A stretch of DNA of 63,790 bases, the filler included, from Stramenopiles sp. TOSAG23-6 (Eukaryota), in the NCBI GenBank assembly GCA_900128565.1. It is 56 parts of 56 records of this genome, joined end to end, with 100 filler letters (N's around TTAATTAATTAA, not from the genome) between each part and the next. Parts side by side here need not be neighbours in the genome. Positions count along the whole stretch, not along the records: positions 44,645 to 45,679 come from LT639896.1; 55 more parts are not named here. The stretch is one strand, 5' to 3'. The translations under genes were made by a program, and so were the position numbers. The notes beneath the pieces were generated by a model that saw only the letters and a list, made by a program, of their open reading frames with translations, ran no database searches and was not told the DNA's origin. Every line of letters starts with the position of its first letter. Position 1 is the first letter of the stretch. This document shows positions 44,929-45,679 of this stretch, in pieces.

Positions 44929-45679
44929 CTAAGACTTTATCGATTTTGATGGTAGGGTATGTTTTTCAATACTTTGTACTATTTGTTTTGGATTGTGTAA
45001 TGGACCTAAACGATCCAGTTCTAATCTTAAGACATCTGATTTTGCTTTCAATATTTTGTAATGAGATGGATTTTCTCTCTTTGCCTGTGCAAGCCATGGT
45101 GAAATAACTTCATTAAGAATATATTCTCGTTTAAGAAGAAAATGCTGTTTAATAAAATCTTCAAAATCAGGTGGAGGATTCTGTAGTTGGTTAATCATTG
45201 CCCAATTTATTGTTGCAAGGCGTAGATATTCATAACCTCCATTCTGGGATGTCCTCTGTTGAGTAACACCTGTTGTAGTACCTCGATATTTCTCCATTCC
45301 TGGTTCGTTGTAATACGGATATTGGACTCCAAGTATTGCCGATTGGATTGAAATAATTAATTGATTAATTGTTGATTGACTAGGTTGCCATGTACTGTGA
45401 AAATATATATCGAAAAAATAATCGTTAGGTACAAAATTTACTATAAAAAAAAACTTTGAAATTGAAATGAAAACATACATCCTGGACCCTTCCAAGTTCC
45501 TAATAAGGATAAGCAAACCTTCCCAGTTGCGTATAAGTTTGGGTTAAATCGAACTTTCCCCCCTGCAGTTGTCAGTAATTGTACTTTGGGGGGATTGATA
45601 GGATATTGTTTGGTTGCATCTAATTGAAATACAAAACATCCTGAATCATAAGGTGTATCTTGAGGACCAGTAATTAAAA
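44929..45679 (-). CDS. Ubiquitin-conjugating E2 (BIRC6/UBE2O-type UBC domain), partial
   Basis: [14 protein letters not shown]...[31 protein letters not shown]...PYYNEPG. Confidence 0.9.
45390..45478 (-). other. GT-AT intron that bypasses an adjacent CAG
   Basis: GGA T|GTATG...CACAGTACAT|GG CAA gives GTWKGPGWQP; using the CAG would frameshift. Confidence 0.9.

Follow-up and report, generated by a model that had tools for sequence, protein, structure and literature searches.

The AG that closes introns at their 3′ end ranks with the most constant signals of eukaryotic genes; only a few large-scale exceptions are known, in Fritillaria, in Amoebophrya and in some euglenozoans. In this account we describe introns that run from GT to AT in a stretch of 63,790 bases from Stramenopiles sp. 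TOSAG23-6 (assembly GCA_900128565.1), called the window below. The initial annotation of this stretch had singled out an intron in a ubiquitin-conjugating enzyme (E2) gene, where a good CAG acceptor seemed to be skipped in favour of an AT five bases downstream, and had concluded that AG scanning is lost or overridden. Our results partly support this interpretation: its direction was right and its framing wrong, the true object being a rule for AT ends and a repeated intron family that carries the rule. Precise removal from GT to a terminal AT, with AGs left unused, was found for this family and for at least two other introns, in RNA for the E2 intron and by deduction from reading frames or homology elsewhere.

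The closest known case is that of the Fritillaria introns with a 3′ AT and a YAY triplet. These larvacean tunicates have non-canonical U2-type introns whose commonest 3′ end is AT (44% in F. pellucida, 34% in F. borealis; Soo et al. 2026, PMC13326754). The last three bases of these introns are YAY, which often stands also just before the 5′ site, and divergent U2AF paralogues bind non-AG ends (PMC13326754); transposons with inverted ends have been proposed as their origin (PMC11282704). Similarly, the 3′ end here is usually not AG (AT in 31/35), YAT is the last triplet in 29/35 ends and stands before the 5′ site in 14/28, and a U-rich tract is present. In contrast to F. borealis, where the 5′ end is mostly AG, the 5′ end here is of GTAYGT type, with GT in 27/28, and a single family dominates. 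A Fritillaria-type host would be a fritillariid larvacean with duplicated U2AF and without a minor spliceosome. The intron-bearing MmpL-like gene of the window, whose best solved relatives are bacterial MmpL3, argues weakly for a protist, and together with poly-Asn tracts it suggests a protist rather than a tunicate.

A second group to which these introns can be compared is that of introners, of which Huff et al. are said to have given an account in 2016. According to Gozashti et al. 2025 (PMC12130899), introners are transposon-derived introns of Micromonas, Aureococcus, dinoflagellates and others, and the described families use GT..AG or other accepted sites, e.g. AC. The present family resembles them in that unrelated genes contain many copies of much the same sequence, that the ends look like short inverted ones with a short direct repeat at the junctions, and that the frame is restored when the element is excised with one repeat. 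It differs from the described introners in its AT end, and neither a transposase nor an empty site was found for it, nor a superfamily in which it could be classified. Farhat et al. 2021 (PMC7789003) report that Amoebophrya introner elements lack a dominant dinucleotide pair and carry direct repeats 3-5 nt long and inverted ones of 8-20 nt; the coding G+C, from nuclear cox fragments, is ~54-58%. Amoebophrya is likewise a marine protist with repeated introns that have non-GT-AG ends and direct and inverted repeats at their junctions, whereas the introns described here are uniformly GT..AT, with an inverted match of 5-6 nt, in DNA of 31% G+C. As hosts, neither Amoebophrya, by its G+C, nor diplonemids, by their C/G-rich intron ends (PMC12621601), fit; AT-rich uncultured marine protists are a candidate class, of which MAST-4A, with 33.9% G+C (PMC5269757), is an example. 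No GT..AT introner family of a protist was described in the open-access literature searched, of which coverage was partial.

RNA evidence at the E2 intron

The window consists of 59 unrelated pieces of ~1.03-1.05 kb each, sorted by length and joined by linkers of the form N44-TTAATTAATTAA-N44, and the three sites named in the initial annotation lie on three unrelated pieces. The E2 site marks the 3′ boundary of an 89-nt intron within a BIRC6/UBE2Z-like E2 gene, which occupies the minus strand of the piece 44645-45679, as do all the features listed in this paragraph. The upstream exon (45479..45679) reaches the contig end and encodes the initial portion of the UBC fold (UQ_con, E 8.7e-17; UBE2Z and BIRC6 chains), and the exon 3′ of the intron (44932..45389) supplies the remaining UBC fold and a BIRC6-like extension (BIRC6 chains, UBC domain, E 3.4e-18). 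In the GT..AT register the intron spans 45390..45478 and reads GTATGT…CACAGTACAT; it is one copy of the repeated family, with an nhmmer hit at 45480-45388 (E 1.9e-13). Its 5′ splice site GTATGT (45473..45478), preceded by an exonic AT, is like the 5′ ends of the family. The sequence ACCTAAC at 45424..45430, 35 nt before the 3′ end, contains CTAAC and is a putative branch site, judged by the CTRAY consensus. The intron ends TTTTCACAG-TACAT|GG, the reverse complement of 45390-45400 being TCACAGTACAT and the exon then reading GGCAACC. The terminal TACAT (45390..45394) closes with CAT, which is the family's usual YAT end, and the bypassed CAG (45395..45397) occupies intron positions -7 to -5.

The E2 piece occurs in seawater metagenomes and metatranscriptomes, of which RNA runs X3, X5 and X6, from three studies (X3 being poly(A) RNA), and DNA run X1 were analysed. 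Contigs, not raw reads, were compared with the piece; contigs lose rare variants, so that minor use of the CAG, e.g. in products that are frameshifted and degraded, may occur and is not quantifiable, and bins that have no RNA cover (e.g. 44645-44924) are uninformative. One contig in each of the three RNA runs contained the joint 45388-45478, with 89 nt skipped and 0-1 further differences in the flanks. Three letters at this joint fit either side, and the possible registers on the minus strand are TA..TG, GT..AT, TG..CA and AT..AC, all giving the identical mRNA GGT CCA GGA TGG CAA, which encodes GPGWQ. An exon start after the CAG was found in no contig of X3, X5 or X6, the CAG thus serving as acceptor in 0 of 3 RNA contigs; combined with the GTATGT donor it adds 5 nt and shifts the frame. 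These contigs confirmed that the intron ends in TACAT with an unused CAG 5 nt upstream, and that the AT restores the product which the CAG would disrupt. In DNA run X1 the joint was present in 0 contigs, and X1 contigs enter the element from both exons.

A database protein related to the E2 exon (P0005, 49% identity) has ~20 N-terminal residues that resemble translated non-coding sequence and end just before the GW that matches the junction. This relative may have an intron at the same place that was missed by the gene finder.

A repeated intron family with AT at its 3′ end

The family has the form GTAYGTTTT…CGTACGAAATTTTGTACCTAAC…CCAAAATACAT, that is, GTAYGTTTTATTTT at the 5′ end, an A/T-rich stretch, CGTACGAAATTTTGTACCTAAC, a U-rich stretch and CCAAAATACAT at the 3′ end. 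With its flanks the consensus is (Y)AT|GTAYGTTTTATTTT … TTTTTCGTACGAAATTTTGTACCTAAC … GAAATATTTTTCCAAAATACAT|(G). An nhmmer profile built from 14 complete copies gave 77 hits in the window, corresponding to 60 unique sequences, and exact ACCTAAC occurs 69 times. In X1 the depth of words from a 35-nt core of the element was ~29,900, against ~5 in the flanks (~5,700-fold), compared with 29 against 2.9 in poly(A) run X3; these depths are rough, and their contrast fits thousands of genomic copies that are largely missing from mature RNA. Copies lie in genes for E2, enoyl-CoA hydratase (ECH), myotubularin, GDP-mannose dehydratase (GMD), an ion channel and an MmpL-like transporter. A further host is a helicase-like ORF, recognised by reading its translation and lacking a Pfam match; at least six other hosts have a Pfam or PDB match. 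Many contigs break within a family copy.

The family appears to be an abundant, short, transposon-like intron, or introner. The terminal inverted match is 5-6 bp, a direct repeat of at least 2 nt was present in 14/20 introns, and no empty site was seen. Pfam scans of the ORFs of the window, which were not a search aimed at transposases, revealed none. Scanning metagenome contigs for a 17-nt core motif gave 64 loci, at which the family profile found only weak partial matches (best E 2.4e-05) and no full copy. These 64 loci were rejected as relatives of the family and regarded as chance matches around the motif itself.

Among unique 5′ ends, GT was present in 27/28, the 28th being a spurious antisense hit; the dinucleotide before this GT was AT in 18/28, and the triplet CAT or TAT in 14/28. 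Unique 3′ ends (n=35) comprised 31 AT (CAT 22, TAT 7, AAT 2), 2 GT, 1 AG and one uncertain; two of the 35 were mis-projected by the profile, one of these being the AAG end. A conserved terminal motif, CA(C/A)AATA(C/T)AT, was apparent: all 35 ends carry A at -7, the base at -6 is mostly A (30 ends, against 3 with T and 2 with G), and C stands at -3 in 24/35. The two copies with G at -6 are exactly those ending at 45390 and 51285. Since this G lies within the conserved terminal motif, the CAG of the E2 intron and the AAG at 51285 are single-base variants of the motif. Bypass of the CAG was correctly recognised in the initial annotation, but the CAG is a one-base variant carried by 2/35 copies and not a good acceptor.

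The same ending had been noted at two further sites, and the sequence bears this out. At 6121-6130 it reads CACAGTACAT, which closes a short intron of 52 nt (6079..6130, plus strand) with TACCTAAC inside it, missed by the nhmmer profile. Judged by frames only, GT..AT joins frame 0 to frame 1 in this intron, and use of the CAG leads to a stop after 11 codons. At the third site a contig end truncates a family copy, of which the 3′ part remains (51285..51350, minus strand; hit 51351-51285, E 1.1e-12). This copy ends CCAAAGTACAT, and the reverse complement of 51285-51292 is AAGTACAT, the AAG-TACAT ending noted there; its end was placed by family alignment alone, the upstream exon lying beyond the contig. 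AGTACAT occurs 10 times in the window on both strands, 3 of them at these intron ends.

Homology located the junctions of two other introns. The family copy in the ECH gene (58744..58858, minus strand) runs GTATGT…ATACGT, with TTTTTTTTTTAG 30 nt before its end; exon 1 ends at the equivalent of Cys148 and exon 2 begins at that of Asp149 in chain 2vx2_A, without a gap, and the intron ends CGT. The GMD gene contains a non-family intron of 106 nt (11752..11857, plus strand) that runs GTAATT…CTATAT with ATG at both junctions. Its removal leaves exactly one Met between Ala and Trp (6gpj_A residues 238-240), and an AT..AC register is impossible there. In the ion-channel gene (Ion_trans) a family-related intron (13085..13233, plus strand) runs GTTTGT…ATATAT between exons that both lie on codon boundaries. 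In the myotubularin gene the family copy at 14507..14602 (plus strand) is GT..AT by frames, and the Myotub-related match covers profile positions 40-229 before it and 223-305 after it.

For a broader test of frames, ends were first fixed from the family consensus and the 19 complete copies were then checked. GT..AT was in frame at the first pass in 15/19, where chance predicts ~1/3. Of the four misses, one fits when its end is moved, post hoc, to AAAATAT|, one is ambiguous (32 versus 35 open codons), a third offers no test, its upstream exon being 9 nt long, and the last, near 49754, does not fit. Precise removal of family copies from mRNA is thus indicated by RNA contigs for E2, by homology for ECH, as also for the non-family GMD intron, and by frames for 15/19 copies. 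One copy (4194..4392, minus strand) ends AAG where others have CAT and is in frame only with an exon starting right after the AG. In this copy position within the element apparently counts for more than which dinucleotide stands there, unless the copy is drifting to a canonical end.

CTAAC was taken as the branch motif; it lies 33-63 nt from the 3′ end across copies, and two of the 35 ends, having no recognised motif, were dropped (n=33). Downstream of CTAAC, at least one AG was found in 12/33 copies, mostly 10-17 nt after the A, and 3 copies have an AG no more than 8 nt from the end. In 11/33 copies such an AG cannot be the acceptor, and in the twelfth it is the terminus itself. An internal YAT upstream of the real end was present in 30/33 copies, which ruled out scanning for the first YAT as the rule.

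Further observations were made on individual introns and their hosts. The best solved relatives of the exon at 40093-40536 (minus strand), which adjoins a family intron, are bacterial MmpL3/4/5 transporters (E 1e-10). No Patched/NPC1-type chain was among the relatives listed, and the exon looks like part of a gene for a bacterial-type RND transporter within a eukaryote. An intron end in 12666-12790 (plus strand) reads ACAATAGTAT|AG, with one AG 3 nt before the AT and another directly after it; the upstream exon is missing. Short telomere-like runs occur inside introns or intron-like stretches at 6527-6545, ~3930-3945, ~32870-32885 and 11825-11840. They include TTAGGGTTAGGG directly 3′ of a GTATGT donor, CCCTAACCCTAA, and GGGGTTGGGGTTT in the GMD intron.

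Proposed mechanism and competing explanations

We consider it probable that the E2 intron is a GT..AT intron of an introner family, removed by a U2-type spliceosome that no longer requires a 3′ AG. Such a spliceosome would read a 5′ site (GTAYGT) and a branch motif (CTAAC) that are both normal, and its recognition of the 3′ end would accept A then U in the context TA(Y)AU, ~33-56 nt past the branch (63 in one copy). AGs between branch and end would not compete, and the CAG of the E2 intron would reflect replacement of A by G at -6 within the terminal motif. Copies have (Y)AT in the exon just before them and again as their last bases, a pattern that resembles a 2-nt target-site duplication; removing the element with one AT would restore the frame exactly, and an origin from a transposon that duplicates an AT target may be supposed.

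At the E2 joint, where three letters fit either side, the intron can also be read as AT..AC (ATGTATG…GTAC|AT), either minor U12-type or U2-type AT-AC. Its true end would then be AC and the CAG irrelevant. A first-A/last-C pair is understood to work in spliceosomes, AT precedes GT in 18/28 copies and C occupies -3 in 24/35, yet we regard this reading as unlikely. Conservation is higher for the 3′ AT (31/35) than for the AT that precedes the 5′ GT (18/28), which favours GT..AT. Ten of the 28 copies have no upstream AT, and those tested are still in frame as GT..AT (near 13626, 10590 and 58795, and at 6638 after a post hoc correction of the end); the GMD intron would have to be read AT..AT. Since AT..AC is impossible in these ten copies and in the GMD intron, GT..AT is the single rule that covers all cases. 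U12-type introns in particular, by their consensus, would begin ATATCC, or more fully (A/G)TATCCTT, where the present ones begin GTAYGTTTT. They would also have a TCCTTAAC-style branch ~10-26 nt from the 3′ end, where here the branch-like motif CTAAC is 33-63 nt away. A canonical intron can be written on paper by pairing the CAG with a weaker donor, GTTTTC, 4 nt downstream, which was the case that the initial annotation had named as refuting it. The product, GPGCITWQP, is in frame, it would have a 7-residue loop as in human BIRC6 (3ceg residues 179-185, between both aligned exons), and GTTTGT serves as donor elsewhere, in the ion-channel intron. All three RNA contigs show the 89-nt skip instead and none this joint, and UBE2Z, the best match of exon 1, probably has a short loop like the observed product. 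The arrangement is thereby contradicted as the main product, and we give it almost no credence.

Removal might also proceed independently of the spliceosome, as proposed for euglenid nonconventional introns, with pairing of the intron ends aligning the junctions. Depending on position, 16-20 of 20 introns, two non-family introns included, would allow AU|GUA (exon -2..-1 and intron +1..+3) to pair with their five terminal bases, UAYAU, and the G at -6 of the E2 intron retains a U·G pair. This pattern is also the one expected from a 2-nt AT duplication beside short inverted ends. The helix would have just 5-6 A/U-rich pairs, RNAalifold gave 0 consensus pairs for 14 copies, and the fold of the E2 intron is no better than those of shuffles (z 0.38), results that lend a structured RNA no support. 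A strong U1-type 5′ site (GTAYGT, 27/28) and CTAAC are present here, whereas nonconventional introns are without them (PMC6221363, PMC12621601), and we judge such a mechanism decidedly improbable. Still less probable, in our estimate, is that the joined form reflects excision at the DNA level or an insertion-free allele in the sampled communities. RNA libraries may hold DNA, and introner copies are generally expected to be polymorphic; against this, all three RNA runs contain the joint and no contig of the DNA run does, where contigs instead lead into the element from either side, and the ECH, GMD and E2 genes would be broken unless the element is removed from RNA. The system is unlike ciliate-type internal eliminated sequences, which leave the joined form in DNA, and standard stop codons are in use.

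Several observations weigh against GT..AT removal by a U2-type spliceosome. AG is still depleted after the branch motif, with 14 occurrences against 22.3 expected from shuffles (0.63), 1.35% of shuffles being as low; the copies are related, which makes this a weak test either way. Some selection against AG may persist. The contention that AG scanning is lost or overridden is supported by the unused AGs of 11/33 copies and qualified by this depletion; the check proposed with it, a search for an AG-exclusion zone, was carried out on family copies of the window only and did not show the zone to be absent. The copy near 49754 does not keep the frame when read as GT..AT and needs a TA, AA or AC end. 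No branch point, lariat or snRNA was seen, and the term spliceosomal refers to sequence signals only. RNA support covers one intron, E2, in contigs, where minor isoforms are hidden, and the joined form could in principle derive from strains without the insertion. The terminal inverted match is only 5-6 bp, and neither a transposase nor an empty site or presence/absence polymorphism was observed, which leaves the transposon origin putative.

The misfit copy just mentioned (~49718-49885, minus strand) lies in a gene with an acyl-carrier-like motif; a hidden assembly error is an alternative there.

Remaining features of the window and meaning of the AT end

Rfam at gathering thresholds gave 0 matches in the whole window. 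Some pieces are exact duplicates of one another: five copies at 25258-30867, three at 35531-38850 and two at 1155-3360. The piece 45780-46814 is a perfect palindrome (arms 45676-46091/46503-46918 and 46092-46268/46269-46445, 100% complementary) and looks like the product of amplification or an assembly chimera rather than biology. At 30968-31475 and 31575-32022, a 144-nt unit stands three times in tandem, with 100%/99% identity, and after it comes a long coding-like stretch that repeats every 18 nt; at 52584-53372 a 300-nt stretch occurs twice, exactly, 489 nt apart in the same piece. A cysteine-rich ORF (63123-63788, minus strand) has a weak match to a Giardia variant-surface-protein family (E 2.6e-06, under the curated cut-off). 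Its piece carries no family intron and may come from another organism.

The 5′ site and branch motif of the introns described here look ordinary, and only the last base differs, AU standing for AG; in one copy AG is found at the same place. Given these ordinary-looking signals and the AG that takes the place of the AT in that copy, the family offers a clean natural system for asking what fixes a 3′ splice site without AG. It also bears on how an AT-duplicating transposon becomes a harmless intron. A wider proposal, which we put forward tentatively and with some doubt, is that major splicing in this uncultured marine protist has shifted genome-wide from GU..AG to GU..AU with the 5′ site and branch motif kept. 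The shift might have been driven or permitted by the spread of an AT-duplicating introner to thousands of copies, and its origin would be independent of that in Fritillaria. Annotation of such genomes will go wrong where gene finders insist on AG, and the related protein P0005 appears to start inside an intron of this kind.
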